A DNA stretch of 64,000 nt from an uncultured Pseudomonadota bacterium (GTDB lineage Bacteria; Oederibacteriota; Muellerivitia; Muellerivitales; Muellerivitaceae): assembly GCA_963843375.1 (NCBI GenBank), contig CAWJKT010000004.1:224001-288000 (forward strand). Direction: 5' to 3'. How positions within the stretch are numbered: position 1 is the first letter of the stretch; every line of letters starts with the position of its first letter. The notes under the pieces were generated by a model. It saw only the letters and a list, made by a program, of their open reading frames with translations. It was not told the DNA's origin and searched no databases. A program made the translations under genes and the position numbers. Positions 2,192 to 46,175 of this stretch are shown piece after piece.

Positions 2192-4918
2192 TTGGCCTAT
2201 ATTCCTATAACCCCTGAAGACGAAAAAGAAATGCTAAAGGTCATCGGCGTGAAAGCGCTGGACGACCTTTTTGCCGATGTATCCCCTTCCCAGATCCTCA
2301 AGAATGGTCTGAATCTTCCCCACGGACTTACCGAACCCGAGCTCAAACGCTTCTTTAATATGATCGGCAAAAACAACCAGCCGGTTTCCGACCGTCCCTG
2401 CTTTTTGGGCGCGGGGCTTTACTACCACGAGGTGCCGGCAGCGGTGAAGGCCGTGGTAACCCGACCCGAATTCCTTACCTCTTACACCCCTTATCAGCCG
2501 GAAATTGCGCAGGGAACCCTTCAAGTGTTATTCGACTTCCAAACTTACATGGTGGAACTGACGGGGTTGGAAGTTTCCAACGCCTCCCTTTACGACGGGG
2601 CTTCCGCCGTAGCTGAGGCCACTCTCCTGGCCCTTCGCATCAAAAAGGCGGAATCCTTTGTTTATGTGTCCCAAGCGGTCCATCCCGAATACCGCCAGAC
2701 TATCCAGACTTACCTGAATCCACTCGGCCATAAGATCCGGGAAATCGGGTTGAAGGGAACCGAAACCGATATTGAACAACTTAAAACCGAACTTTGGCCC
2801 AATTCGGTCGTCGTGATCCAATATCCCAATTTCTTCGGCACCATTGAGGATTTGGCGGCCATTTCCAAAATCTGCAAGGAGAAGAATTCCTATCTGGTGG
2901 TGGCCGTGGCGGAGGCGATGAACCTGGCCCTTTTGCCTACTCCCGCTTCCCTAGGAGCGGACGTCTGCGCCGGAAGCGCCCAATCCTTCGGAAATATTCT
3001 TGAATTCGGCGGGCCCCATGCGGGTTTCCTGACCGCCCGGTTCGACGATATCCGGCAAATGCCGGGCCGCATCGTGGGAGAAACAGTTGACCGAAACGGT
3101 AAAACGGCCTGCGTGCTCACCTTTCAGGCTCGCGAACAGCATATCCGCCGGGAGCGGGCGGCCTCTAACGTTTGCACCACCCAATCCCTGATGGCCAATT
3201 TCGCTTCCGCTTGGCTTTACTTCAAGGGCGGCAAGGGCGCCCAACAGGTTGCCAAAGACGGAGCCGCCACAGCCCATACGCTGGCCACCGAAATCCAAAA
3301 GATACCCGGATTCAAGGTTGAAACGGTCCGTTACGCCAATGAGTTCGTGGTCCGCCCGCCCTCTTCCGGTTTTGCCGATTTCATGGCCGAGTGGGGCTTG
3401 GTGGCCCCCTATGATTTGTCCCATGATTATCCCGAGTTCAAGGATTGTGTGCTGGTCGCTTGCACCGAATTGACGTCGTTGGAAGATATGGAAGCCTTCA
3501 TCTCCGCCTGCGAAGAATTTTCAACCAAAGGACACGCCGGAAAGGTCCACCAAAAGCCCACCGAACTTCCCAAATGGATCAAGCCCCGTATCCCCGCCGC
3601 TATTCAGGAACATCCTGAAGTGGATCTGGTGCGTTATTACACCGACCTGGCCCGCAAAAATTTTTGTATCGACAATGGTTTTTACCCGCTGGGCTCCTGC
3701 ACGATGAAGTACAACCCGAAAGTTCACGAGGAAATCGCCTTCGCCGACGCCTGGGCCAACCTTCATCCCGCCCAGCGCGAGGACGAGGCGCAAGGCGCCT
3801 TGCAGGTAATGTACGATCTGGAACATTGGCTTCAGGAAATCACCGGTTGCCACGCCCTGACGCTCCAGCCCGCCGCCGGGGCGCACGGGGAATTGACGGC
3901 CCTTTTGATGGCCAAGCGCTATTTCGCGGACAGGGGCGAGCACCAGAGGGTCAATGTGATCGTGCCGGACTCGGCTCATGGAACCAACCCGGCCTCCGCC
4001 ACCATGGCTGGCTGGAAGACCGTCTCCGTCCCTACCGATAGCCGGGGCAACATGGATCTGGAGGCCTTGAAGGCCAAACTAGGCAAGGACACGGCGGTTT
4101 TGATGCTGACAAACCCAAGCACGCTCGGGTTGTTCGAGGAGCATATTCTAGAGGTAGCAAAGCTGGTTCATGACGCGGGGGGTCTTCTTTATTACGATGG
4201 CGCGAATATGAACGCTATAGTGGGGATTTGTCGTCCGGCGGATATGGGATTCGACCTGGTGCACCTCAATTTACACAAGACATTTTCCACTCCACACGGC
4301 GGCGGGGGTCCGGGATCGGGGCCGGTGGGTTGTACGAAAACCCTCGAACCCTATTTGCCTGAGCCCAGGGTGGCCAAGGAAGGGAACCGTTATTTCCTGA
4401 AGTTTGGTTCGCCCCAATCGATCGGCCGGATGAAGGGAAATGTTGGCAATTTCGGCGTGCTGTTACGGGCGCTGGCCTATTGCAAGAGGAACGGCAAGGA
4501 AGGTTTGGAAAGAGTGGGCCGCATCGCCACCTTGAACGCCAATTACCTTTTAGCCCGGTTGAAAAATCACTATCCAGTGGCTTACGACCGCATTTGCAAA
4601 CATGAGTTTGTTCTAACCGCGGAGCCTTTGAAGAAGAAGTACGGCATTTCGGCGCTGGACATCGCCAAGCGCATCATCGATTTCAACTACCACCCGCCCA
4701 CCATTTATTTTCCGCTGGTGGTGCCTGAATCCATCATGGTGGAACCCACGGAGACCGAAACCAAGAAAACTTTAGACGAGTTCGTGGACGCGATGCTTAA
4801 GATCCGCACTGAGATGGAAATTAACCCGGACGTTTTTAAGAACGCGCCTTACTCGACGCCCGTCTCCCGGCTGGATGAGGTGAAAGCGGTTAAAGAACCC
4901 AAACTGGTTAAAAAATAA
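2192..4918 (+). CDS. gcvP: glycine dehydrogenase (decarboxylating), fused GcvPA + GcvPB-type halves
   Basis: N-half is GcvPA-like (YIPITPEDEKEML, FLTSYTPYQPEIAQG, AREQHIRRERAASNVCT). C-half is GcvPB-like (EVDLVRYYTDLARKNF, YPLGSCTMKYNP, PLP motif HLNLHKTFSTPHGGGGPG, MVEPTETE). TTG start. Confidence 0.92.
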   Translation: MAYIPITPEDEKEMLKVIGVKALDDLFADVSPSQILKNGLNLPHGLTEPELKRFFNMIGKNNQPVSDRPCFLGAGLYYHEVPAAVKAVVTRPEFLTSYTPYQPEIAQGTLQVLFDFQTYMVELTGLEVSNASLYDGASAVAEATLLALRIKKAESFVYVSQAVHPEYRQTIQTYLNPLGHKIREIGLKGTETDIEQLKTELWPNSVVVIQYPNFFGTIEDLAAISKICKEKNSYLVVAVAEAMNLALLPTPASLGADVCAGSAQSFGNILEFGGPHAGFLTARFDDIRQMPGRIVGETVDRNGKTACVLTFQAREQHIRRERAASNVCTTQSLMANFASAWLYFKGGKGAQQVAKDGAATAHTLATEIQKIPGFKVETVRYANEFVVRPPSSGFADFMAEWGLVAPYDLSHDYPEFKDCVLVACTELTSLEDMEAFISACEEFSTKGHAGKVHQKPTELPKWIKPRIPAAIQEHPEVDLVRYYTDLARKNFCIDNGFYPLGSCTMKYNPKVHEEIAFADAWANLHPAQREDEAQGALQVMYDLEHWLQEITGCHALTLQPAAGAHGELTALLMAKRYFADRGEHQRVNVIVPDSAHGTNPASATMAGWKTVSVPTDSRGNMDLEALKAKLGKDTAVLMLTNPSTLGLFEEHILEVAKLVHDAGGLLYYDGANMNAIVGICRPADMGFDLVHLNLHKTFSTPHGGGGPGSGPVGCTKTLEPYLPEPRVAKEGNRYFLKFGSPQSIGRMKGNVGNFGVLLRALAYCKRNGKEGLERVGRIATLNANYLLARLKNHYPVAYDRICKHEFVLTAEPLKKKYGISALDIAKRIIDFNYHPPTIYFPLVVPESIMVEPTETETKKTLDEFVDAMLKIRTEMEINPDVFKNAPYSTPVSRLDEVKAVKEPKLVKK

Positions 4919-31454: not shown

Positions 31455-31483
31455 TTGACTAATAAAACCAGGGGGTGGATAAT
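31455..31483 (+). promoter_or_regulatory. putative sigma70 promoter of the pilin-like operon
   Basis: TTGACT-17 bp-GATAAT, about 110 bp upstream of ATG 31593. Confidence 0.5.
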
Positions 31484-31592
31484 CAACACGGGTAGGTTTT
31501 TATAATGTTTCCCGCCGGAGTTGCCGCTCCCCCGTTTTTCCTTATTTCATGCTAAAATTCAGCTGAAAAACATCGATTTTGGAGCGGCGTCT

Positions 31593-32573
31593 ATGGGTCA
31601 TATATCGTTGCAATCTAAGCTTTCACGATTCGCCAATGCCTTTGGGCAGTTCTTGGGTGTTTCCTCTCATTCCACCGAGCGGTTTCCTTTTTCCAAAATT
31701 CAAGATTCCCGGGGTTCCGCTCTGGTGATGGCGGCTATTTTCATGCTAGTGGCCTCGGTGCTCATCACGGTGGGTGTCAAGCTGGTCGCTAACGCTTCCC
31801 GTGGTGCCAAGGAAAAAGAACTCTACGTCGGCGAGGCGGAAAACGTGGCAAGAGCGGGGCTCATCGACGCGCTCGCCTGGTTCCGCAGGCAAGCCGGCAA
31901 CGGCGGTGTCGTCAGCGCTTACACGGGAGGCGCGGCAGTGCCGGGGCAATCGTCCGTCACTTGGGCAATCAACCCCGATATCAAGGTTCCTCCCTCGCCC
32001 ACGCCCACCCCCACGAGCTACACTTATACCTACGTGGACGAAGCTTTCAATCCTCAAGGCAATACTACCGATCCCCAGCTTGCGGACACCATCGCGGCTA
32101 GTATTGGCCTCGTCGGCGAATATCCCTTGAGCGATCCTGTGACGGCTAACTGTCTTTATTGGGCGAGGTTCGAGGTGCCCAAACAGGGCGCTGGCGCCAT
32201 GGCCACGACTGCGGTCCACGACATTACCGGGGAACGAACCGGCGACGTGAACGGCGACGGGTTCGTCTGGTCCATCCAGTCGACGGGTTACGTTTATAAA
32301 AGATTGGATAAAAGAGTCGACATCTACGGCAACTGGATCGTCCCTTATAATTCAGCCCCCAACACCGTTGTGGCTAAGGCCGAATTTTCCACCGAGTTAA
32401 GAAAATTAGGTTTGAACCTGCCCGTGCCCACACCCGGTCCTAGCGTTTATTCATCGGGGCTTTACGTATACAACGCGGGCCAGTGCGTTACCCTCACATC
32501 CGGTGAAAGCCTCCTGGACGGGGCGGTGTCCCAAATCGATACCTTCGGAGTGATCGGGCTATCGAGCCCTTAG
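31593..32573 (+). CDS. PilX/GspK-like minor pilin, N-terminal part
   Basis: Class III-type leader SRG|SALVMAAIFMLVASVLITVG lacking Glu5 (typical of PilX/GspK), then EAENVARAGL and WSIQSTGYV. Confidence 0.7.
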   Translation: MGHISLQSKLSRFANAFGQFLGVSSHSTERFPFSKIQDSRGSALVMAAIFMLVASVLITVGVKLVANASRGAKEKELYVGEAENVARAGLIDALAWFRRQAGNGGVVSAYTGGAAVPGQSSVTWAINPDIKVPPSPTPTPTSYTYTYVDEAFNPQGNTTDPQLADTIAASIGLVGEYPLSDPVTANCLYWARFEVPKQGAGAMATTAVHDITGERTGDVNGDGFVWSIQSTGYVYKRLDKRVDIYGNWIVPYNSAPNTVVAKAEFSTELRKLGLNLPVPTPGPSVYSSGLYVYNAGQCVTLTSGESLLDGAVSQIDTFGVIGLSSP

Positions 32574-32637
32574 GGGGAACGAAGGGGGAAAGCAAAAGCC
32601 GCGCGAAACGAGTTGAATTTTTCAAGGGGGTCGAGAG

Positions 32638-34605
32638 ATGAGGGTTCGGGTCAAAAAAATTTTTCGGAAGGTCTTTGCTTTGGGGTTCCTGAAGCCATGG
32701 CTTCTCCTTGTCCTGGCCCTGTTTTTACTGACCCAAGTTTCCTATGCCGCTCCTACTTCCACTCCCAGCAAAACCCCGACCAGCACCATCACTGAAACCT
32801 TCACGAAGACTGCGACCAGCACTATCACCCAAACCTTAACTCAGACCCCAACCAGCACTTACACGAATACCGCGACCAGTACCATCACCGAAACCTTAAC
32901 GAAAACCGCGACCAACACTTTCACCAATACTGCGACCAGCACCATTACCCAAACCTTAACCCAAACCCCGACCAATACCCCTACGACTACCCCGACCAGC
33001 ACCATCACCGAAACCTTAACGAAAACCGCGACCAGTACCGCGACCAATACCATCACCCAAACCTTAACGCAAACCCCGACCAACACACCCTCGAATACCA
33101 CGACCAGCACCATCACCCAAACCTTAACGCAAACCCCGACCAATACCGCGACCAATACCATCACCCAAACATTGACGAAAACCGCGACCAGTACCGCGAC
33201 CAATACAATCACCCAAACTTTAACGCAAACCCCGACCAACACACCCTCGAATACCACGACCAGCACCATCACCCAAACCTTAACGCAAACCCCGACCAAT
33301 ACCGCGACCAATACCATCACCCAAACATTGACGAAAACCGCGACTAGTACGACCACTCCCACTTTCACCTATACTCCAACCCTCACCCAAACCAATAGTG
33401 TGACGAGTTCACCGACCTATACAGCCACCCCAACGGCAACTAATACCATCACCCAAACCTTAACGAAAACTCAGACCAATAGCCCGACCTATACCACCAC
33501 AAGAACGGCAACCTTTACCATCACTGAAACTTTAACTACTACCGCGACCAATTCCCCGACCCCGACTAAGACCTTTACCGCGACCAATTCCCCGACCTTG
33601 ACTAAGACCTTTACCACGACCAATACCCCCACTAAAACGGCTTCTTACACCACCACCTTTACTCAGACCAAAACAGACACCAATTCCCCGACCGTTACCC
33701 TGACCTTTACCACCACCAAAACTACGACAGCAACCCCGTCCTTTACCCCCAGCGGGACACCTACCAATACCCCATGTTTCGTTATTCTTCACGGGATCGA
33801 AGTCCTCTGCACCAATACGCCCGGGATACCCACAAATACCTTTACTCCCTACATTACCCCCACCCCCACCATTACCAATACTTTCACCAATACCTATACC
33901 TTCACCAATTCCCCGACCATCACCAATACCCCCACTCCCTGTTACGTCACCAATAGCGGTGGGGCGACGGTTCTTTGTTCCTGCGATGAGCCCCAAAACG
34001 CTAATGCGGGCGACTTCCAGGGTGGGGTCACCTGCTTCAACGGTCCCGCCTCTCTCCTGACTTCGGAAAGCGTCTTCGGGATGAACCTGGCCGACGTCAA
34101 AAATGTCGCCGACTATATCGGCAGTTCCTCCAATGGGACCTCCATTGTCCTGGATATCACCTCCGATTGGAAACTCTCCTATTTCGATGGACCGGTCACC
34201 TATGGCCCTGATCAGCCCTTTCCCTATACCACCTTGGGCGCTCCCAAAACCGACACCACCCCGCAGACAAGCGGCTTCGGTATCCTGGTTGTCAACGGCG
34301 ACTTGACCTTGCAGGAAGGCAGCGGAAGCACCCTACCCAGTTCCTGGGGCGGTGTGATTTATTGCACTGGTAACCTAACCGTGGGGGGCGGGTGCGTCAT
34401 CACCGGGGCGGTCATCATGGGAATTCCCGATTCCAACGCGGCGGACGGCAACTACGGAACCATCACCCTTACCGGAAGCGCGGGTAATTTCGGACAGGTT
34501 ATCTATAGCCCCACCCTGGTGACGACGGCCGAGGAACTGGTGGGCGTTTACCGGGAAGATATCAGTGAAACGAAAAAGCTGCTGGCGATTCCCTTTTCCC
34601 AATAA
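32638..34605 (+). CDS. secreted protein: signal peptide, ~400-aa (Thr-X)n stalk and PilX-like C-terminal beta domain
   Basis: Sec signal ending VSYA; Thr at alternate positions over 32752-33939; C-terminal VFGMNLADVKNVAD...GILVVNGDLTL...GGVIYCTGNLTV...GAVI...YRE. Confidence 0.75.
   Translation: MRVRVKKIFRKVFALGFLKPWLLLVLALFLLTQVSYAAPTSTPSKTPTSTITETFTKTATSTITQTLTQTPTSTYTNTATSTITETLTKTATNTFTNTATSTITQTLTQTPTNTPTTTPTSTITETLTKTATSTATNTITQTLTQTPTNTPSNTTTSTITQTLTQTPTNTATNTITQTLTKTATSTATNTITQTLTQTPTNTPSNTTTSTITQTLTQTPTNTATNTITQTLTKTATSTTTPTFTYTPTLTQTNSVTSSPTYTATPTATNTITQTLTKTQTNSPTYTTTRTATFTITETLTTTATNSPTPTKTFTATNSPTLTKTFTTTNTPTKTASYTTTFTQTKTDTNSPTVTLTFTTTKTTTATPSFTPSGTPTNTPCFVILHGIEVLCTNTPGIPTNTFTPYITPTPTITNTFTNTYTFTNSPTITNTPTPCYVTNSGGATVLCSCDEPQNANAGDFQGGVTCFNGPASLLTSESVFGMNLADVKNVADYIGSSSNGTSIVLDITSDWKLSYFDGPVTYGPDQPFPYTTLGAPKTDTTPQTSGFGILVVNGDLTLQEGSGSTLPSSWGGVIYCTGNLTVGGGCVITGAVIMGIPDSNAADGNYGTITLTGSAGNFGQVIYSPTLVTTAEELVGVYREDISETKKLLAIPFSQ
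33019..33350 (+). repeat. near-perfect 156-bp (52-aa) tandem duplication inside the Thr-rich coding repeat
   Basis: Unit TKTATSTATNTITQTLTQTPTNTPSNTTTSTITQTLTQTPTNTATNTITQTL starts at 33019 and 33175, with a partial third copy at 33331. Shorter ACCATCACCCAAACCTTAAC sub-repeats occur throughout. Confidence 0.9.
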
Positions 34606-34628
34606 GGAAAGCCGAAGGGTCTAAACAA

Positions 34629-37600
34629 ATGAGCGTGAAAAAACTTTCCCAAGCCGGGTTCAATCTGGTGGAACTGATGATCGCCGTGGGCATTCTTGCG
34701 GGGCTCTCTTCCGCCGTAATGATGGCCCGGTCCTACATGGCCAAACAAACGGTCAGCACCAACGACAAGGCTTATGCCACCCAAAAAGCCATCCAAATGT
34801 TCGAGGAACTCAAGGCCCTGGTGAATGGCAGCGAGAACTCGGTTAATGTTTTGGACAACTACAGCGACGGAACCAATTACAACCCCATTCTCACCACCGA
34901 TACCACCGTGAACAATGGCGTCACCGCCAACGCGGGGAACGCCTTGAGCGGAAACAAGCCCACACAAGGCGGCGCCTGGCGCTACCTACGGCAGATCCAG
35001 GTCAACCATGTGGCCAACGACGCCTACACCCGCCAGATCATCATCAAAGTTTGGCTCTACCAGTCGGACGCCAATCCCACCCTGCCCGGTACGCTCCTGT
35101 CCGAAATCGGGGGCAACCTGAGGACCATCGCCAGCACTTTCCCCCCCACACAGGTCATGGATGTTTACGTGCTGGCCATCAATAACATCGCCGGATGGTG
35201 GGCCCATGAGCCGGTCCTTTACCAGACCTTCCAAAGCATCATCAACGATATCCAAGGCCGGAACCCGGGGTTTGCCATCCGGCCCCACTATATCACTCGC
35301 ACTTCCTATGGGCGCGACAGCCAATACTTGCCTTACATCAATATTTATCCCTATAACACCGACGGAAATAACGACGCCACCGGCTCTCTCGTCACCACCT
35401 CCACCACGATCGGAAATATGCCTTTCGTTTACATGTATCCCGGCTATACCTACGAGGACGCCGCCGATGGCAGCGTGAGCGACTGCTTTTACGATCCGGG
35501 GCAGTCTCAGGACATCCCCCTGGGGGTTTGCCTGGACGGGAATTTCGACGTGGGGGGTTCCTACGACGATACCAGCCTGCAATTCACCAACTGTCCCAAT
35601 TACACCGTGGCGGACATGTATAACAACAGCATGCGTTACCCCGACGAACTGGCCATGTACCAGGCCGTCACCTCGGCCGCCTCCAGTGCCGTCCCCGCCG
35701 TCCCCGCCCAGGATTCGGTCACTGAAATCAGCTGGCGCATGTTGATGGAAGGAATGCTGGACGAACCCCAATCCTTCACCAACGCCCTCATCGTCAACCT
35801 TCACGGCGAACTTTGTCCCCTTCCGCCCATGCGTAATTATTCGGACCCCGCCAAGGACCCTGGCAGCCTGGACAACGCCAACGACACTAACATCCGAGTC
35901 GTCACCCACCCGCAAATGCTCTATTACCCCGGCAATTCAACAACCAGCGCAAATGTTGGGGTCACCCTCAATGTTTACGCCTATTACGACGGAATGGACG
36001 CCGCAGTCTCCCTGGACAGCCTCTACTCCCCGGTCAACGATCCTAAAACCAACATCAGTCTGTTCTTTCCCGACCTCAATACCGGCGCCAGCATCTTGGG
36101 GGTGACCGCCATCATCGGCAATTCGAGCCAGGCCTCGACTGTGGCTCCCGCCACGGGCCCCGTCACCTATCAATATGACGCCTTCACCATTCCAACCGGA
36201 GGATCGGGCAGCACACCTGGTATTTATAATGGAAGCCTTGCGGACGGAACCAACATCACGGGTCAGGGTCCCGTGAGCGTTGGCGTCAGTTACGTGGGGG
36301 CCAATAAGCAAATGCTCATCACCCTTTACAATACCCGTTTGCGCTGTCCTAGCGGACCCTCCACGTCGGTCGCGGCGAATGGCGCCACAATTGGCGGTTT
36401 GAACATCTTTGACCGTTTATACGGCTTGGAATATATCCCCTGCAGCCCAGACATGAGTTCCCTGACCAGTCCCGTTACTTTTACCAAGCAGGATTTGACC
36501 GATCCCGCTGCAAACGGAACGCCCAAAAATACCGCCCGTTGGCTGGTCAGCCTTTCCGTGCCTGTCACCTCAGGATTCCCCTTTGTCACCGCTGCCACCC
36601 CCTTAACGATCCAAAACGCAAGCGGCATACCCCAGATTTATGACAAACCCGTCACTTTCATTGGGCAACACACTATTGAGACCCGCATCGGCGCTGCGGT
36701 GACTTCCAACGGAGCCCCCAGCAACCTTTCCCGCACTTACCTATGGACCGGCTGGTCGGCCGTTGCGGACGAGGGATCGTCCTATGTCACCACGGGAACA
36801 TTCCCCCCGACCACCGAACAATACCAATTCCTGGGCGACCCTCGGCATGAACCTTACCTGGACGTCAAAGTCGGTGGCATCAATAACGGTCAAGCCGTCG
36901 TCATCCAGAAAAATGGCTACAACTGGTATTTCAAGGATGGGGCGAGGCCCACGACGGGCGTGCCGGTCGCCAACTCGGTGGGGATGAACAATGACGGTTA
37001 TGTCAGTTTCGGAATCGCGGGGGACACCAGCGGATCACTGCAAAACGGCCCCGGCACCCGGTATGGGGGCTGGTGGGGCGCCGATGGCAATTTCGTGGAC
37101 CTCCCCCGGTTCCACTCCATGGTCATGAATGGCCTTTTAAACGCCACCGGGGTCTGGACCACCATGAACGGTTGGACCTATTACTATTATGGAATGGGGG
37201 GAGAATTTGGGAGCGACCAGCCGCCCTTCCAGAATGGCATCACTATTAATGCATCCCTTTACAGCACCACGGCCAACGCCGCCGTCGACTACGTTTCTGA
37301 GATCATTCCATATACCGATGGGGGCGCGGCCTCTATCACCTCCTTGCACCTGCCCGCCAATACCCAACAAACCTGGTACGCGAAGACTTGGCTGGGGGAA
37401 CTTTATCCCGACAGCATGTACACCGCTTGGAGTTTTTACGGAAACCTTCCCTCGGCAAATATCGGGGGGCCTTCGAAGTTCACTTTTTACCGGGAGGATT
37501 TTGGAAGCATCCCCACCACCCTTTACAGCGGAACCGTGACTGTTTCCTACGGCAACGGAAATTCCCTGACCGGGTTTGGGCGCCAAGTCACCAACCGTGC

Positions 37601-38663
37601 CGGCGCGAACGGCTGTTCGTCTTTCTATAACGGTTCTGCCAACGGCTCCGGAACGGATAATACCTTTAACCATGAAGGGACGGGTGACACGGATTCCACC
37701 ACCAGCATGGCCGCTTCCTGTTTCAACATTTTTCAATATCCCCTTCCGGTGGAAGTAGTCAACTCATCCGGGCGTCCTTGGGCGTTGAATCAAGGGAACT
37801 ACCCTCCCCAATGGAATATCGCCCCCTATTCCACCCATAACACGCTGACCGTTCCAGAGGTCAACGGGACGTCACGCGTTTTTTATACCACCTCCGCGGG
37901 TTCACCCTGGACTGGCACGGGTGTGGTCCAGATCACGAATCCCAACGGCCTCGCCAATGGAGAGCCCGTCACCCAGGTCGCCTATGTGGTGGAATCGGGA
38001 TTGTCCATTTCCGCCCAAGTGGGGACCTCCGATCTGGGTGAAACGGCATTGGTGGCCCTACTCAGGACCTTTTTGGACGGGGGAAATTACGCGAGCCCCG
38101 GCCATATCACCCAAGTTCCCCTAATCGAATGTTATGTCGACAGCCCCACCAACCAGTATTACCAGCCCTCCGTTATCAACGTGATCGTGGATGGGGCTGT
38201 GACGACGGGGACCGCCACTTCGGTCACTCTCGTCGGCGGCGCTGTTACAACGCTCAGTACCGGGCCCACCAACAACATTTGGTACCGTTATCCGGGGCTC
38301 ACGTCCAGCACCGCCAATTTTTACACCGAGGAATATCCCGGTTATCCCACCCTTGCCAGCAGTACCTATGTCGAAACCGGCGGTAGCGGCACAACTCCCA
38401 TCAATCTGGACATGAACTTCAAGTATTCCACGGACAGCGGGAATACATGGTTGTTCATGAATAATAACGGACCAGCCACCTTCGGTGTCTTGGATTCCAG
38501 CGCCGACGGCAATTTGTACACCAGTAATAGTTTTCCCTACAGTTTCGCCTGGAACGTGAATAGCTTCCCCCAGGGGAATTATGAAATCATGGTGGAAGCT
38601 TACCGGCAAAATATGCCCCTGGATTACGCCTACCATATTCTTACGGTCACAATCGACCAATGA
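34629..38663 (+). CDS. giant (1344 aa) type IV prepilin-motif protein: PilV-like N-terminus plus a large extracellular region
   Basis: QAG|FNLVELMIAVGILAGL N-methylation motif; AYATQKAIQMFEELK helix; C-terminal Ig-like segment FAWNVNSFPQGNYEIMVEAY. Confidence 0.8.
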   Translation: MSVKKLSQAGFNLVELMIAVGILAGLSSAVMMARSYMAKQTVSTNDKAYATQKAIQMFEELKALVNGSENSVNVLDNYSDGTNYNPILTTDTTVNNGVTANAGNALSGNKPTQGGAWRYLRQIQVNHVANDAYTRQIIIKVWLYQSDANPTLPGTLLSEIGGNLRTIASTFPPTQVMDVYVLAINNIAGWWAHEPVLYQTFQSIINDIQGRNPGFAIRPHYITRTSYGRDSQYLPYINIYPYNTDGNNDATGSLVTTSTTIGNMPFVYMYPGYTYEDAADGSVSDCFYDPGQSQDIPLGVCLDGNFDVGGSYDDTSLQFTNCPNYTVADMYNNSMRYPDELAMYQAVTSAASSAVPAVPAQDSVTEISWRMLMEGMLDEPQSFTNALIVNLHGELCPLPPMRNYSDPAKDPGSLDNANDTNIRVVTHPQMLYYPGNSTTSANVGVTLNVYAYYDGMDAAVSLDSLYSPVNDPKTNISLFFPDLNTGASILGVTAIIGNSSQASTVAPATGPVTYQYDAFTIPTGGSGSTPGIYNGSLADGTNITGQGPVSVGVSYVGANKQMLITLYNTRLRCPSGPSTSVAANGATIGGLNIFDRLYGLEYIPCSPDMSSLTSPVTFTKQDLTDPAANGTPKNTARWLVSLSVPVTSGFPFVTAATPLTIQNASGIPQIYDKPVTFIGQHTIETRIGAAVTSNGAPSNLSRTYLWTGWSAVADEGSSYVTTGTFPPTTEQYQFLGDPRHEPYLDVKVGGINNGQAVVIQKNGYNWYFKDGARPTTGVPVANSVGMNNDGYVSFGIAGDTSGSLQNGPGTRYGGWWGADGNFVDLPRFHSMVMNGLLNATGVWTTMNGWTYYYYGMGGEFGSDQPPFQNGITINASLYSTTANAAVDYVSEIIPYTDGGAASITSLHLPANTQQTWYAKTWLGELYPDSMYTAWSFYGNLPSANIGGPSKFTFYREDFGSIPTTLYSGTVTVSYGNGNSLTGFGRQVTNRAGANGCSSFYNGSANGSGTDNTFNHEGTGDTDSTTSMAASCFNIFQYPLPVEVVNSSGRPWALNQGNYPPQWNIAPYSTHNTLTVPEVNGTSRVFYTTSAGSPWTGTGVVQITNPNGLANGEPVTQVAYVVESGLSISAQVGTSDLGETALVALLRTFLDGGNYASPGHITQVPLIECYVDSPTNQYYQPSVINVIVDGAVTTGTATSVTLVGGAVTTLSTGPTNNIWYRYPGLTSSTANFYTEEYPGYPTLASSTYVETGGSGTTPINLDMNFKYSTDSGNTWLFMNNNGPATFGVLDSSADGNLYTSNSFPYSFAWNVNSFPQGNYEIMVEAYRQNMPLDYAYHILTVTIDQ

Positions 38664-40155: not shown

Positions 40156-43100
40156 ATGGATTCAAAACTAATGGAAAAACTTCTCCTCAATCCTAACCGT
40201 TTAACCTTCTTTTCTATCTTTACGCTGTTAGCTTTCCTTCTGTTTCCTTTTCAAGCCTTAGCTACCGATACTTTTAATTTTGTGGTTCCTCCCACCTCTG
40301 CTTATGCGGGAGTGACCTATCAGGTAAACAGCGCGGTGACCTTCAACGTCCAGGCTCTGAACGGCGCGTCTGTGGATAATTCGTTCAACGACGTGGTGAC
40401 GGTGGGGCTCTACAACACCGCCACGAGCCAGTTGGCCGATCCCCAGGCTGTTTTTGTCCCTAGTGGTTATGCGCCCGTCGTCGGTGCGACCGCTCCCATG
40501 ACATTCCAAAATGGCCTTTTGAATTTCGGCGTCACCCTGACCGCCGGGTGCAATTCCATGCAGGTCAGCATCCAGGACGCCTCCGTCACCGCCTCTACCG
40601 CCACTTATCCCGGAGCTATCGGGAACACCTCGGGACCGGGATACGTGGTGGAGGGCTTTTTCCAATCCTATTTTCTCGCAGCCTCGAGTGGAACTACCAT
40701 CCCCGCCCAATATCCACCCAACACGGATCTGCTCCTGACCAGCCCGGTGACCAATTCCAATTACGCGGTAACCGTCATCTCGGGCAGCAGCGTCACCAAT
40801 TCTCTTTGTTTCGCCGTGACAGGGGTGACAGGGGGATATGCGGGGTTGAACGCTGGGGTAGCGGCACATTTTGAGGCTTTCAAGGACGTAAACGCCACCG
40901 CCGCAGTCAGCTATGAAGTGATACTGGATTACAACGGCACCCTGGCGGATTACAACAACCCGGACCTAACCCCGGGGGACCCCAACGAAGACACGGTTTA
41001 TTTCGGGTCAGTTCCCAACATCGCGGAAAGTTATAGCCTCGTCTCCGGATTTTCCTCTACTACTGGTGCTGCCCCCGCCACCTACATGAACAACGGCCAG
41101 GTGATCGTGCGCTTTTGGACCAGCGCCCCAGTCACCAACACGGTCAACCTCCAATGGTCCTCCAACGAGGGTATTCTTTCCTATATCAACGTTCCTTATT
41201 CCAATAGCAACGTCCAACCGGTGACGGCCGGCATGAGCCCCTCCATCATCGAGGACAGCGTCTCCACCCCCGTGACCTACACCATCAACAACCAATATTC
41301 CCTGCCCATCACTTACCTGACCATTCAAATACCCACGAACAATCCCTCGGGTTCAGGAACACCCTTTAGCGTCAGCGTGCCCAGCTCCGTTCCCGGCCTT
41401 CCCGGCAGCAGCCTGGGCGTTTCCCAAGCCACCAACACAACCACCGGGGCCATCACATTGATTTCCGCTTCGAACCCGATCACTGTCAACCAAGTGGTTC
41501 AGATTCCTTTAACCATCACCTGTTCTAGTCAAACCAACAGCGCCTGGGACTTTCCCCTCCTGTCGGTTTTGTCCAACACGGGCCTAGCCGTGCCCTCTGT
41601 TTCGGGCGGGGCGGTCATTGCCTCCGAGGCCCCGCCTCCGGCGCCTTCGTCCTTTACGGCTTCGGTGATCCCCTACATCAACAGCGGCGGGGGAAGCGTG
41701 AGTCTCAACTGGAGCCAGGTGACGGCCCAGACCAACCTGGGTTACGTCCTCAGCCGCAGTCCAACCCCTGCGACAGGGGCCTTTTCTGCTTCCGTCACAC
41801 TTCCCAACGGAACAATTGTCCCCAACGCGGTGACCTTCACCCCCAATACCACCCTGGGTTACATTGACTCTGCGGTGACCAACCTGACGGCTTACACCTA
41901 CAATCTTACGGCTTATAACGCAGTGGCCCAATCGACGCCGGTCACTACCGCCTCCGCCACGCCTTACGCCAATCCCGGACCGCCCTCCAGTGTTCAAGCC
42001 TTGACCGGAGGAACCACTATTGAACTCAATTGGGCGACACCTGTTGCCGTGCCTGGCTCTTATCCCGTGACGGGATACCAAATTTACCGGGGAACCTCTT
42101 CGGGGGGGAAAGCGGGACTCCCATCGCCCAAGTGGGGCTAGTGACCACTTTCAAGGATACGACCGTCAGTGCGGGGACGAATTATTATTATTATCTTTCC
42201 AGCATGGACAATCTTTACAGCGGTGGAGCGCCACTGGGCGCCCACGACAGCGGGCCTTCTTCTGAAGTCTCCGGTTATCCCAACGGCTGGCCCCCCACGG
42301 GACTCATCTCCAACCTGGTTTCACCCAGCCCGGCCACCATCGGTCTGAGTTGGACGGCACCTAGTTCAACACTGGTTTTGAACCAACCGATAGAGAATTA
42401 TCTGATTTATAAGGCACTGGCCCCTGGTGCCCCGGTTTATTATGCTTCGGTCGGCAGCAATGCCACGACCTTCGCGGATAGCACGGGCTTAGTGCAGGGC
42501 GACAGTTATATCTATCAAGTGGCGGCGATAGACAGCCAAGGGGTGACCTCCAACCTTTCAGGACCTGTCACTGAATCGGACGGGGCCTCGGCTCCCACGG
42601 GCCTCACCGCATCCCCCTCCGGAAGCGGCATCACTCTTACTTGGTCGGCCAACCCGGTAGCCCAAGGGGTCACCCAATACGGGGTCTACCAAAACGGAGT
42701 TTCCATTGGAAGTACGGCTGGTGTCAGTTTTCTGGTTTCGGCCGCGACCGCCGTCCAGGGCCAAAATGATATCTATACTTTGAACGCAATCGCACAAGGA
42801 TTTACGTCGCTTTTTTCAGCCCCCGTCACCTCGGCCCTGTTTCCGGTGGGGGAAACAGGCTTTACGGTGGCCTCGGCCTTGAACCCCAATACAACTGTCA
42901 ACCTTAGCTGGGCGACACTGATTGCGGGCAACGCCAACGCGACCGGTTACAATATTTATCGCAACCCTACAAGCAACAGCTACCCCTCAGGGGCCGTGGC
43001 CGTGACTCTGGGTATGGCCGTGACGGCGGCGGGGAACCCGGTGACTTCACTTCAGGACCTGGGACTCTCAGCGGGGACCACTTATTTTTATTTCCTCCAG

Positions 43101-46100
43101 GCCGTTAATCCCTCTGGTGTGGGGCCGGTCACCGAACAAGCCCTTCAAATCCCGCCTAACCCGCCGGGAACTCCTACGGTGACTTCATCCACCAGCGCCG
43201 TGACCCTCACTTGGACGGCCAACAGCGCCAGCCAGAACGTTTCCCAATACACCATCTACCGTTCCCAATTGCCCTCGGGAACACCCGTGGCCGTGGGGAC
43301 GGCTACCCCTGGAACCGCCACCAGTTTCACCGACATCGGCCCCTTGACCCAGGGCGTTAGCTATGTTTACGACCTGACGGCTACAAATCCTGGTGGGGGT
43401 GCGGGCATACCTGGCGGGGTCAGCCAGCCTTCCGCCTCTGTCACATGGGGTTTGTTGCCATTGGCTTCCACGGGCTTGGCGATTACGGGAATTACCCAGT
43501 CCAACAATATCTCCGTCACCTGGACCAACGTGACGACAGCCGACCCCAATGCCAGCGCCGTCTCGATTTTTGTCAATACTAACCACGCATCTCCCAACGG
43601 CGGAACCACTGTTAATATCACGCCAGTTTCAAGCCTGGGCGTTACCGATACGGGCTTCTTGAGCGGTGTCAGCGGGGAAGCGCCGGATACTTCCTATTAT
43701 TACTGGCTCCAGGTGACTGATCCATTTGGGGCGAGCGCCTACGAGGGCCCTGTCACTCAATTGACCTACCCCGGCGCCGTTAATCTGTCGCCGGTAACGC
43801 TGGCTTCGGACGGAGTTTCCCGAATTCTGGAATGGACCACCCTTCCCTCCGACGTGACTGGCTATACGGTCACCCAGGTAGGCGGAGGAGTTACCCTCAC
43901 CCAAGCTTATCCCGCTAGCGCTGCAGGAGCGCCGGTGACCCTGACCCTCGCCACCCAGCCGGGAGTGGCCTATATCTATACCGTTACGGCTACGAACGCC
44001 ACTGGCACGGGCCCGGCCTCTAATTCACAAACCTTCAGTTCACTCCCTTCCTCTCCGGTGAGTGTGACAGCGATTTCGGGCACGAGCAACACGGGAGTCA
44101 CCGTGGTCATTTCCTGGTCGGCCCCGGTTTCCGCTTCCCAAGAAGGGGTCACGGCTTATTCGGTTTACCGGGCCACGGCCTTGGCCGGACCCTACATGGC
44201 AGTGGTTTCGGGGCTCACAGCCCCTCTCACTTATGCCGATTCGGGCGCAGCTGTAACCGGGTTGGGCGTTTATTACTATATCGTCGTGTCGGATGACAAC
44301 ATGGGCCAACAGAGCCCGGTGACGTCTGTCGACGCTGTGCCGGTAACGGCCTTCGCCCTGCCCAACCCGCCTGGGACGCCGAACGACGTTCCCGCCAACA
44401 GTTCCGTTACTTTAACCTGGACCCCGGGTTCGGCCACCACCTATCCGGTTTCCATTTATGACATCAGCCGTGTAAACGCGGGGGTTACCACGGTCATACC
44501 AACCGCCGCAGTGACTTTCGACGACACTACCGTGCTGAATGGAATGACCTATGTCTACTTCCTCCAAACTGTGGATAGCCAGGGCAACCTGAGCCCCGCG
44601 ACCTTGCCCGTGACCGTGACGCCATTAAATACCCCCGGCCCTCCTCAAAACCTGGGCGTTGGGGTGGGGGATCAGGAACTATTATTGACATGGAAAGCGG
44701 GAACGGCTGGAACCCTGCCTATCGGCAGTTACCTCATCTATCCGATTACAATTACGGGCACGGGCCCGATGACCGCTTCCGCCCCGGTTTCCGTCAGTTC
44801 AACCTTGACGGGATATTTGGACACCGGATTAATGGATGGGGTCACTTATAGTTTTTACATGCAATCGGTCGATACGACCGGGGTCACCACGGGTTTGGAT
44901 ATCAGTCCTCCCTCGGCTTTGGTTTCGGGAGTTCCTGTTTCCCTTACCGCAAACCCCCCGAGCAATTTGGCCGCCACCGGGGGTGTCTCCCAAGTAATTC
45001 TCTCCTGGACGGATTCAGTTACGGTAATTGGCGGAACCAATGTCACGGGTTACAACATTTACCGAAGCACCGCACCTAATTTCTCCAGTCCCACGACCTT
45101 GGCGTTCGTATCCGCTCCTGGAGGCGGTGTCACCGCCCAGGCCGTCACCGATACGGGCCTGATTAATGACACAACTTATTACTATTACATGACCGCCTCG
45201 GCCCCTGGAACGGTCAGCGCCGATAGCGCCACTGTGTTCGGTATTCCTGCGGTGCCGCCCGCGGCCCCAGCGACCTTGATCGTCACGGCCGGAAACCAGC
45301 AGGTTCTAATCGATTGGCCTCCATCCTCCCCGGTGGTCGGAGCCCTTCCCGTTTCTTTCTATATAGTCACCATCAACGGTGCTCCGGTTACGGTGCCCGC
45401 GACCCAAACTTGGTATTTGGATTCTGGCTTGACTAATCCGACTCCGGTCACGGTCACAATTCAGGCCATGGATTCTCTGGGGGTTACCACCGGAAACAAC
45501 GCCAGTACGATCGTAGGCCCTCTTTCGGCCACCACCAGCGGCTCGGACTTGAACCCTCCTAACGCCTTGACCGCAGCCGTCACGGGAACGAACTCCATCA
45601 AACTCACCTGGGGGCCCCCCAACGCCGATGGTTATCCCGTCACGGCCTATAACCTCTACCGCGCCACCACTTTCACCACCAGTTTCCTTAGCCCCTTAGC
45701 CACCCTTTCTAATAGTTCTCCTGTTACTTCCTATCTCGATACCAACCTCGCGGCCAATACCACCTACTATTACGTTCTTCAGGCAATGTATTCCTCCGGG
45801 CCCGGCGGGGCTGTCTCGTTGGAAAGCCCTTATTCTAATCACGCTGAAGCGACCACTCCCGCCCCGAGTGCGGCCGTGCCGCCGGTCACCCTGGGAGTGA
45901 TGGCCTTCGATGCCAATGTCTTGAAGCCCCTGACGGGCCAGCAACTAGGGATTTATTTCGTGGCTCCCGAAAGCGGGCCGGTGGAACTGGACATTTATAA
46001 TATTTCGGCCCATCCCATCCGGGCACTTTATGCCACGGCCATCGCAAACATAACTGTTAGTTTGACGTGGGACGGCAAGGACCGTGAGGGTAGTTGGGTC

Positions 46101-46175
46101 GCCTCCGGGGTTTACCTAATTGAAATCAAGGCCCCAGGTCTGCACCAGATCAAGAAAGTGCTGGTGGTTAAGTAA
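40156..46175 (+). CDS. ~2000-aa secreted multi-FN3 protein with a C-terminal FlgD-Ig/T9SS-like domain; -1 frameshift at G7 (42102-42108)
   Basis: Signal peptide ending QALA. About 14 FN3 repeats (P..P..L.A....V.L.W...Y.IYR...D......YYY) span ORFs 40156..42141 and 42030..46175; one FN3 is split exactly at the G run (YRGTSSGG|ESGTPIAQV). C-terminal VELDIYNISAHPIRAL...WDGKDREGSWVASGVYLIEIK...KKVLVVK. Confidence 0.8.

Follow-up and report, generated by a model that had tools for sequence, protein, structure and literature searches.

ORFs A and B, which lie one after the other at positions 31593-32573 and 32638-34605 of the window (the whole stretch of 64,000 nucleotides that was analysed), correspond to the N- and C-terminal parts of a protein encoded by a single gene in related genomes. 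We consider it likely that a single ancestral tip minor pilin, of the PilX/PilK/GspK kind and with ComZ architecture, has been divided between their products, which would now dock onto each other in trans. The locus is best read as a natural cis-to-trans conversion that would have led to a PilY1-like modular tip adhesin. With considerable reserve, we also incline to the view that it records the passage from a tip pilin completing itself in cis to a two-protein system in trans, with a shared solenoid core and a donated strand.

Layout of the locus and the junction

The features of the locus are as follows.

31455..31483, + strand: promoter-like site TTGACT-17-GATAAT upstream of ORF A (10/12 matches; weak evidence)
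31593..32573, + strand: ORF A, encoding the N-terminal half (326 aa) of a tip pilin of the ComZ/PilX type, with putative leader, hydrophobic pilin-type helix, pilin-like sheet and first beta-solenoid rungs; aligns to residues ~16-325 of the fused proteins
31713..31778, + strand: residues 41-62 of A, GSALVMAAIFMLVASVLITVGV, a hydrophobic N-terminal helix segment of pilin type
32436..32570, + strand: A tail, residues 282-326, orphan first solenoid rungs and predicted interface with B
32571..32637, + strand: fission junction with the TAG stop of A, a 64-nt spacer, TGA and the RBS-like AAGGGGG
32638..32748, + strand: residues 1-37 of ORF B, a Sec-type signal peptide with cleavage predicted between SYA and AP (heuristic)
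32749..33975, + strand: Thr-rich stalk of ORF B, residues 38-446, 409 aa, (T-x)n, imperfect tandem repeats
33976..34605, + strand: residues 447-655 of ORF B, its C-terminal domain, which comprises an apical loop with Cys-Cys, a long helix, the other solenoid rungs and a final beta-strand with YRE motif; in the fused proteins the last ~210 aa are homologous to it
34629..38663, + strand: ORF C, 1344 aa, prepilin-type N-terminus GFNLVELM; TIGR02532 at 19.2 bits
38660..39856, + strand: ORF D, 398 aa, minor-pilin-like, N_methyl motif, PF07963 at 30.4 bits; 4-nt overlap with C

ORF A starts with the ATG at 31593, its frame being also open up to a TTG at 31521, and its C-terminus ...FGVIGLSSP is followed by TAG at 32571-32573. 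As the original prediction had noted, ORF B (+ strand) is read in a different frame (31593 mod 3 = 0, 32638 mod 3 = 1) and has an in-frame TGA (32614-32616) upstream of its start. The RBS-like AAGGGGG is located at 32624-32630, 7 nt 5' of the ATG of ORF B. Programmed frameshifting or read-through joining A and B was rejected because of the TAG in the frame of A, the intervening TGA in that of B, and spacings or overlaps that vary among the genomes. Promoter-like sites number four in the region, against a mean of 5.2 in shuffled sequences and thus without excess, and the scan of the region for promoters and terminators gave counts no higher than in the shuffles.

The N-terminus of ORF B contains seven K/R followed by WLLLVLALFLLT and the SYA-AP site, as judged by a hydropathy/AxA heuristic, and by the same kind of heuristic a signal-peptide-like N-terminus was found in all ten B genes of the split genomes. 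The fresh Sec signal with some 400 residues of Thr-X claimed from the first inspection is thus matched by a signal-like segment and a stalk of 409 residues, which contains 188 Thr, 159 of them with a second Thr two residues on, and 35 Pro. The underlying DNA consists of imperfect tandem repeats, e.g. with a period of 156 in 2.4-2.7 copies and 88-94% matches; stalk length and copy number are those of the assembly, in which the core at ~32914-33315 is covered by short unitigs only. In other genera the stalk is replaced in the N-terminal extension of B by Ig-like, DUF1349 and other modules borne on Thr/Pro linkers. One such N-terminal module was modelled as an Ig-like beta-sandwich of a generic type (pLDDT 71.6) with best TM values of 0.4-0.5 to unrelated proteins in the PDB, and a search of five genomes for its paralogs, as possible donors of a cassette, returned only the query itself and one linker match.

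Family searches contributed little to these assignments. Neither Pfam nor NCBIfam provided a usable match for A or B, so that no family was recognised; the N_methyl motif was not matched in ORF A in the Pfam scan, and matches of ORF B to DUF445 and a lipase were dismissed as low-complexity noise. In ORF A the helix segment is preceded by a 40-aa leader with an Arg-Gly end, the junction lying between SRG and SALVMAAIFMLVASVLITVG, and residues G41, S42, A43, A47, F50 and M51 are invariant across the alignment; a missing Glu at +5 is typical of GspK/PilX. The label 'PilX-like' given originally holds by fold and architecture and fails by Pfam, as PilX_N reaches in a fused ortholog an E value of only 0.052, under its cut-off.

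Fused and split orthologs

The comparison was based on positional orthologs in 20 relatives together with the source genome. Both parts were located in all 21 genomes, 11 with the fused and 10, including the source genome, with the split form. The ancestral single gene that had been postulated is represented by one ORF of 441-726 aa spanning both parts in the 11 fused genomes, which include members of other families, and by fused full-length proteins in 103 of the best 150 representative clusters; the fused state was found in all five Elusimicrobia-titled loci and in two genomes of other families (G025 and G026). All split A proteins end at one alignment column and all B C-terminal domains begin just past it. 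On the fused protein of G018, A aligns up to residue 314-319 and the C-terminal domain of B begins a few residues on, in line with the earlier observation that the end of B resembles the C-terminal domain of PilX-like proteins, since it is homologous to the last ~210 aa of the fused proteins. The proposed insertion of a 1.4-kb cassette is valid as the net difference between the two states, which may have arisen by one insertion or in several steps.

Orthologs of ORF A were detected in 23 of the 41 genomes searched, and no more than one copy each of A and B was found per genome. Pairwise comparison of G000 with G001 of the same genus yielded dN/dS values of 0.21 for the whole of A and 0.25 for the C-terminal domain of B, indicative of purifying selection, and of 0.30 for the stalk. 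The most constrained part of A is its tail with a dN/dS of 0.064, compared to 0.20 for the rest of A. The conserved orthologs and the purifying selection relative to G001 imply that ORFs A and B are more than chance reading frames.

The split form is spread over six genus-level groups. In the tree of the C-terminal part the nine split rows are set apart from the others by a single branch (support 75/72; present in 80% of the bootstrap trees), and for the N-terminal part monophyly of the split forms is not rejected by the AU test (p 0.454). The trees are therefore compatible with a single origin of the fission, as far as these alignments go. Fused and split states co-occur in two genus-level groups (g2 and g5), so that one origin would require a later exchange of the locus, the other solution being several fissions. 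The lineage of the split clade is uncultured and titled candidate division FCPU426 in the records of the relatives.

Fold, predicted interface and alternative explanations

The modelled structure of a fused ortholog revealed an IBP-like beta-solenoid that follows the penultimate strand of the pilin sheet and precedes the last one. The long helix 59-116 corresponds to the region of the presumed pilin helix of A, strands 167-278 are modelled in the presumed pilin region, and no GspK chain is among the matches listed for the whole fold. The tail of A is equivalent to strands 292-327 within the IBP-like fold 276-508. Based on secondary structure, the aligned ranges and a linear offset to residues 116-136 of FfIBP (PMC10853241), the break is predicted to fall within the solenoid, either at the apical cap or adjoining it.

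The idea that the two halves might re-associate, for which co-folding had been proposed as a check, was pursued with residues 33-326 of A and 447-655 of B in three runs and with three controls. The A:B pair scored 0.87, 0.86 and 0.87 and so passed the mark applied, the best of the controls 0.00; of 157 solved complexes 116 attain this mark, and of 215 mismatched pairs 2. At least 96% of the contacts, 317-335 in number, are common to the runs, and the pLDDT of the partner is at least 85. In the predicted complex the interface is formed by residues 286-312 and 317-326 of A and by residues 2-36, 127-150, 160-179 and 182-209 of the C-terminal domain of B. The rungs are stacked via residues 290-292 of A on 145-148 of B and 299-300 of A on 163-165 of B, while the last strand is attached to the pilin sheet and helix by contacts of residues 269-270 and F97 of A with Y192/R193 of B. 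As the chains are two halves of one fold and the alignments of both included fused homologs, the co-fold result indicates that the halves fit the ancestral fold rather than that they bind in the cell. ComZ provides a solved relative, which is to be kept in mind for the co-fold. An inter-chain disulfide between A and B, suggested by the Cys patterns, was dropped in view of the A protein of G012, which contains no Cys.

We propose the following scenario. The ancestral protein would have consisted of a pilin helix and beta-sheet with an IBP-like solenoid inserted before the last strand, followed by this strand. In one clade the gene may have been interrupted within the solenoid, at the apical cap or beside it, such that A would retain the membrane-anchored pilin part plus the first rungs. 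B would have acquired an RBS and a signal peptide of Sec type, together with a free extension at its N-terminus, here the 409-aa Thr-rich stalk. B is presumably exported via Sec and relieved of its signal peptide. In the periplasm it would dock on A in two ways, its solenoid rungs being stacked on the orphan rungs of A and its C-terminal strand (VGVYREDISE...) being given to the pilin sheet of A; this donation would correspond to the beta-strand complementation in trans that is described between PilC/PilY1 and pilins of the PilK family. The A:B unit, together with the pilin-like C and D, would then prime and cap a type IV filament. The stalk of B would project outward from the tip and serve for adhesion or as a spacer, and may be mucin-like, i.e. 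glycosylated, at the pilus tip.

Former halves can pass a co-fold by ancestry alone, and neither A nor B matches a family that implies a complex. Moreover, B resembles many free adhesins in having an export signal to itself and N-terminal modules that vary strongly. The two products could thus have diverged after the fission, A being a shortened tip pilin without need of B, and B an ordinary Sec-exported surface or secreted protein with a leftover solenoid domain. We judge this explanation unlikely, since ~45 residues of orphan rungs are kept by A in all ten split genomes and in nine A-type representative clusters, and it is precisely this tail that is most constrained. Furthermore, B keeps the terminal YRE strand, which is part of the pilin sheet in the fused forms and in ComZ, and the two single-copy genes are adjacent in all ten split genomes.

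A distinctly less probable alternative considers B as cargo or transient passenger of a type II-secretion-like pseudopilus, docked on A by complementation just for its passage through the secretin and then released. It would agree with the two secretins and several ATPases of the genome, with the A-D locus standing apart from the machinery clusters, and with the requirement, given in the accessible part of a preprint, that payloads of the T2SS leave the tip (bioRxiv 10.64898/2026.02.14.705861). However, the predicted interface is very large and combines a shared hydrophobic core with strand insertion, which is easier to reconcile with a permanent assembly than with a releasable one, and the same part of that preprint presents T2SS cargoes without strand complementation on the PilK homolog (bioRxiv 10.64898/2026.02.14.705861).

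A split due to misassembly at the repeat, sequencing error or pseudogene formation might be suspected in an assembly of 80% completeness with other interrupted genes, an unbridged repeat core and a B gene frameshifted in 2 of the 10 split genomes, but is hardly credible and largely refuted by the same stop position, new start and signal peptide in ten genomes, six genus-level groups and independent clusters, by dN/dS values well under 1 in both halves, and by contigs from other runs. For the latter comparison, Logan contigs of four runs from three studies were inspected over 31500-34700; no RNA run is among the sequencing runs listed. Three of them (X1, 31500-32687; X3, 31500-32914; X2, 32478-33004) cross the stop of A and the start of B with 0 differences, and neither joints nor indels are listed in the contigs over this range, the repeat core 32914-33315 not being bridged. 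The check for a chimeric join that had been recommended was thus passed at the junction, which is reproduced by contigs of three studies.

Relation to known tip pilins and genomic setting

Returning to A and B as probable halves of one tip pilin, their nearest structural counterparts are found among pilins with an inserted solenoid. In ComZ and cyanobacterial PilX the solenoid lies, according to the portions of the reports at hand, between the penultimate and last strands (PMC6561018, PMC13759059). ComZ of Thermus thermophilus (PDB 6QVI) is one polypeptide, in contrast to the two here, its solenoid comprises ~380 residues versus ~230, and DNA binding was demonstrated for it, as stated in the accessible sections (PMC6561018). 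A profile of 96 family members against PDB sequences did not match ComZ at E <= 1, and the likeness is one of fold and topology only. In the cyanobacterial tip pilins PilXCom and PilXEPS the C-terminal strand of the pilin fold is likewise preceded by an inserted triangular IBP-like solenoid, and the available text places their extra domains within one chain (PMC13759059). In the present locus, by contrast, the break lies near the corresponding distal position, and the extra modules reside on the free N-terminus of B, which is predicted to be exported separately. The fold of DUF3494/IBP-1 ice-binding proteins (e.g. 6bg8, 5b5h, 4nu2) is here a module of a pilin, with a marginal DUF3494 sequence signal (E 0.01) and no sign of ice binding.

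The last strand of PilK-family pilins is supplied either in cis, as in GspK and CpaL, or in trans by PilC/PilY1, as outlined in the accessible part of the preprint (bioRxiv 10.64898/2026.02.14.705861). PilC/PilY1, as described there, is a Sec-exported non-pilin anchored at the tip by donating its C-terminal strand to the sheet of the apical minor pilin, and B is predicted to act alike toward A. B shares with it a signal-like N-terminus (heuristic), the lack of a pilin helix and, in the co-fold, a C-terminal strand in contact with the sheet of A. No PilY1/PilC domain or beta-propeller was matched in ORF B by Pfam or NCBIfam, and its C-terminal domain is a solenoid; B would therefore be PilY1-like in its working and not a member of that family. 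It differs further in sharing, besides the strand, a whole solenoid core with the pilin, and in an origin by fission from the pilin that can be read in the fused orthologs.

A split pilin is also known from Geobacter, where PilA-N and PilA-C (GSU1496/GSU1497) are encoded by adjacent genes, the C part having its own signal peptide, and both are present in the filament, as far as the consulted parts of the reports describe (PMC5174107, PMC12954529). Adjacent N and C genes, fused orthologs in relatives and a signal peptide on the C part equally apply to A and B. The Geobacter split, in these partial sources, concerns a major pilin cut between helix and globular domain without added modules, whereas a tip pilin is cut here inside an inserted solenoid and its second half bears a long variable extension. 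A limited literature search found no split solenoid tip pilin.

The type IV filament field is converging on the concept that an apical pilin of the PilK/PilX/GspK type needs a last beta-strand, either its own or that of a large tip adhesin. With fused and split forms at the same chromosomal place, the transition is open to study with natural sequence pairs. If the proposal is correct, it offers a concrete way in which tip adhesins like PilY1/PilC could evolve: severing the chain would turn an internal apical loop into a free N-terminus, on which stalks or binding modules of any size could be swapped while export and assembly of the pilin are left undisturbed. The long stalks and carbohydrate-binding-like modules displayed on the freed end suggest why the cut was kept. 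The modelled complex would also constitute a natural case of periplasmic protein-fragment complementation within a beta-solenoid. For annotation, the ~320-aa 'truncated PilX-like' genes and adjoining 'Thr-rich secreted proteins' of this lineage would have to be treated as one functional unit.

In favour of the main reading, the genome encodes two secretins, four T2SSE-family ATPases and additional pilin genes at other places. Interruptions in the assembly affect one PilB-like gene as well as the sole prepilin peptidase gene detected, so that pilus function in the strain is not assured. A and B are placed beside the minor pilin-like genes C and D in an arrangement conserved across related loci. 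ORF C, presumed to be a partner in the tip complex, adjoins A/B in all 20 related loci; it was assigned to no further family and no solved relative, its atlas matches being sub-threshold only (0.82). ORF D is present in 17 of the 20, two of the others stopping short of D and G026 being without a match. The gene order A(B)-C(-D) is maintained in 20/20 related loci, and 15 of the 20 have an exonuclease III gene upstream.

Gene layout and the A–B junction

Four genes lie on one strand with gaps that are short or absent:

31593-32573, + strand: ORF A, N-terminal half of a putative tip pilin (326 aa), C-terminus ...FGVIGLSSP followed by TAG
32638-34605, + strand: ORF B (655 aa), in a frame different from that of A, its ATG 7 nt past AAGGGGG
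34629-38663, + strand: ORF C (1344 aa), its N-terminal GFNLVELM matching the prepilin motif TIGR02532
38660-39856, + strand: ORF D (398 aa), Pfam N_methyl, 30.4 bits

Pfam and NCBIfam scans recognised no family in A or B, and neither a family nor a solved relative was found for ORF C. The original prediction had described A and B as a PilX-like gene split in two, with the C-terminal half re-exported on its own signal peptide and a Thr stalk. The sequence confirms that A stops and that B is read in another frame, which is interrupted upstream of the B start by a TGA at 32614. The N-terminus of B, with seven K/R followed by WLLLVLALFLLT and then SYA|AP, is signal-peptide-like by a heuristic criterion, as are those of all B genes of split genomes (10/10). 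The stalk is present as described and comprises, as assembled, 409 residues, of which 188 are Thr and 35 are Pro; 159 Thr have a further Thr at position +2, and the underlying DNA consists of imperfect tandem repeats. Over 32749-33975 the Thr-rich sequence of the stalk is not random but keeps to a strict (T-x)n alternation, by which all Thr side chains would point the same way if the chain is extended; the stalk might be a glycosylated spacer or an ordered structure.

A misassembly at the repeat had been named as a possible source of the split. Contigs from four public runs of three studies were compared over 31500-34700, and neither a joint nor an indel was found among them in this range. The junction, from the A stop to the B start, is seen with 0 differences in three contig records (X1 31500-32687, X3 31500-32914 and X2 32478-33004). 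The repeat core (ca. 32914-33315) is present solely in short unitigs of raised depth, such that the repeat copy number, and hence the exact stalk length, is given by the assembly alone.

Fused and split forms in related genomes

A search of 41 genomes, including the window's own, with A and B residues 447-655 (the B C-domain) as queries gave matches in 23 and 22 genomes, respectively. In the 20 related loci compared, the order A(B)-C is kept throughout, D is next in 17 (two loci end earlier and one gave no match), 15 have an exonuclease III gene upstream, and FabI and Dabb genes are found in most. The shared gene order and flanks identify fused and split loci as positional orthologs. Ten genomes carry separate A and B genes, and 11 carry a single open frame of 441-726 aa spanning both parts, in line with the predicted division of one gene; two genomes with the N part alone at a contig end and one with a C-part match alone were left unclassified.

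State of the A/B gene and N-terminal extension of B in related genomes (G000, the window's own genome; G001, same genus; G025 and G026, other families)
Fused: G003, G007, G009, G011, G013, G018, G019, G020, G023, G025, G026
Split, Thr/Pro stalk alone: G000, G001, G005, G024
Split, one or two Ig-like modules: G002, G010, G016, G021, G022
Split, DUF1349-like domain: G012

The titles of 19 related loci from named records read candidate division FCPU426 (8), Elusimicrobia (5), 'Proteobacterium' (3) and 'Uncultured bacterium' (3); the five Elusimicrobia loci are all fused (410-445 aa). When the fused G018 protein was searched against 1.84 billion representatives, 257 proteins were found at E <= 0.001, the best 150 of which comprise 103 full-length fused proteins, nine A-type proteins ending at the junction, ten B-type proteins with an N-terminal extension of at least 60 aa and 28 fragments or unclear cases. 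Together with the fused Elusimicrobia and other families, these counts indicate that the fused form is the common and outgroup state.

In a tree of the C-terminal part, a branch with support 75/72, recovered in 80% of bootstrap trees, separates the nine split rows from all others; the nearest fused rows are G018 and G009. The tree of the N-terminal part gave no resolution, and a single split clade is not rejected by the AU test (p 0.454). Two genus-level groups (g2 and g5) each contain both split and fused forms within conserved flanks, and the ORF C tree reveals two deep types not tracking the genus codes, G002 and G021 grouping with G020; these mixed states and the ORF C tree hint at locus exchange between lineages. 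One fission followed by such exchange fits the data best, and repeated cutting of the same loop is a possible, less favoured alternative.

Position of the cut and fit of the two halves

Every split A ends at one common alignment column (...GAVSxxGxxxxxxMxxP), and a Cys...Cys loop opens every B C-domain directly past it. In the fused G018 protein the A-like and B-like segments are contiguous. The fused G009 protein (locus L030, gene 2698-4653) carries an extra domain of ca. 185 aa, and the fused representative P0004 a Cys-rich insert, both exactly at the loop cut in the split form, which is therefore an insertion-tolerant site. The fused G007 protein (L029 259-2436) contains a Thr/Pro-flanked insert of ca. 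300 aa elsewhere, within the pilin domain.

An AF2 model of fused G018, built with 96 homologs, has a mean pLDDT of 86.8 and a pTM of 0.81; its best PDB match by Foldseek is the Thermus competence pilin ComZ (6qvi, E 2.7e-7), with a global TM-score of only 0.16. Strands 292-297, 311-314 and 321-327 lead up to the break at residue ca. 322-332. Past it, a loop leads into a long helix (361-375), and the chain then completes its remaining rungs before the last strand (520-532). As solenoid strands are found on both sides of the break, the cut lies inside the solenoid and not between domains. Judged by linear offset, it would correspond roughly to residues 116-136 of FfIBP, the 'capping head' immediately ahead of the long helix of that protein (PMC10853241). 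The locus is best read as a tip pilin of the ComZ/PilX type that has undergone natural fission within its solenoid, in a form conserved among relatives; no account of such a tip-pilin split was found in the literature searched.

Co-folding of the two chains (A 33-326 and B 447-655), suggested with the original prediction, scored 0.87, 0.86 and 0.87 in three runs, against 0.00 for the best of three controls; 116 of 157 solved complexes attain the pass mark, as do two of 215 mismatched pairs. At least 96% of the contacts agree between runs, the partner pLDDT is at least 85, and the predicted interface comprises 317-335 contacts:

A 286-312 and 317-326 with B 127-150 and 160-179, the rungs stacking on each other
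A 258-282 and helix residues 75-107 with B 182-209
B Y192/R193 (of the 'YRE' named in the original prediction) on A L269/R270 and F97

Since the chains are halves of one fold, fused homologs occur in both alignments and a solved relative exists, the pass speaks for compatibility of A and the B C-domain with the ancestral fold and not for an interaction in the cell. Selection lends support to the fit independently of the co-fold. Between G000 and G001, dN/dS is 0.21 over A as a whole but 0.064 in the orphan rungs that form its last 45 residues; the B C-domain has 0.25 and the stalk 0.30, and the values of C and D are 0.27 and 0.17.

Proposed strand completion in trans and the variable modules

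In pilins of the PilK/PilX/GspK family, the sheet is reported to need a last strand for completion, provided in cis in GspK and CpaL and in trans by the C-terminus of the PilC/PilY1 adhesin; this completion licenses assembly of the tip complex (10.64898/2026.02.14.705861). In analogy, the fused relatives would represent the cis case and the split genes a trans case derived from it. B is proposed to work like PilY1 but, containing no PilY1 domain in the Pfam/NCBIfam scans, is not a member of that family. The closest precedent is Geobacter PilA-N/PilA-C, in which a pilin gene is likewise split and its second half exported on its own; there a major pilin is cut, at a site unlike that between A and B (PMC5174107, PMC12954529). 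The cut may have been retained for the free end that it creates at the tip protein's apex, where stalks and binding modules could be displayed and exchanged. The export of B, its docking on A, the placement of the pair at the tip and the proposed function of the stalk are predictions.

The N-terminal extension of B varies with the lineage. In a B-type representative of 866 aa (P0036), the conserved C-domain is preceded by two stretches that match DUF1349 at 36 bits, a score exceeding the cut-off, and by a CBM_3 match below threshold (19 bits, cut-off 22.4), which suggests carbohydrate-binding modules on some stalks. FCPU426 has been equated with Goldbacteria, a lineage having a cellulose-degrading member (PMC7031533), which hints only loosely that the variable B modules might bind polysaccharide. 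B is frameshifted once each in G010 (L031 3000-3100, at a run of eight C) and G016 (L035, about 4100-4260), which could reflect assembly error, decay or phase variation.

Among the genes elsewhere in the G000 genome are those for two secretins and four T2SSE-family ATPases, along with additional pilin genes. The sole prepilin peptidase gene found in the assembly is broken into two frames (L064, G000:C14:177600-179200), and a PilB-like ATPase gene is interrupted by a TGA in frame near 1630 of L065 (G000:C1:228800-231000), after which the conserved C-terminal part resumes in the same frame; error, decay or recoding might account for these interruptions. Two ORFs that follow the pilin operon (40156-42141 and 42030-46175) overlap, are read in different frames and code for surface-protein sequence rich in repeats. 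Both correspond to a single long open frame in several relatives (e.g. L025 11206-15000 and L033 3-5054), which suggests that this giant gene of G000 carries a frameshift, whether genuine or introduced by the assembly.
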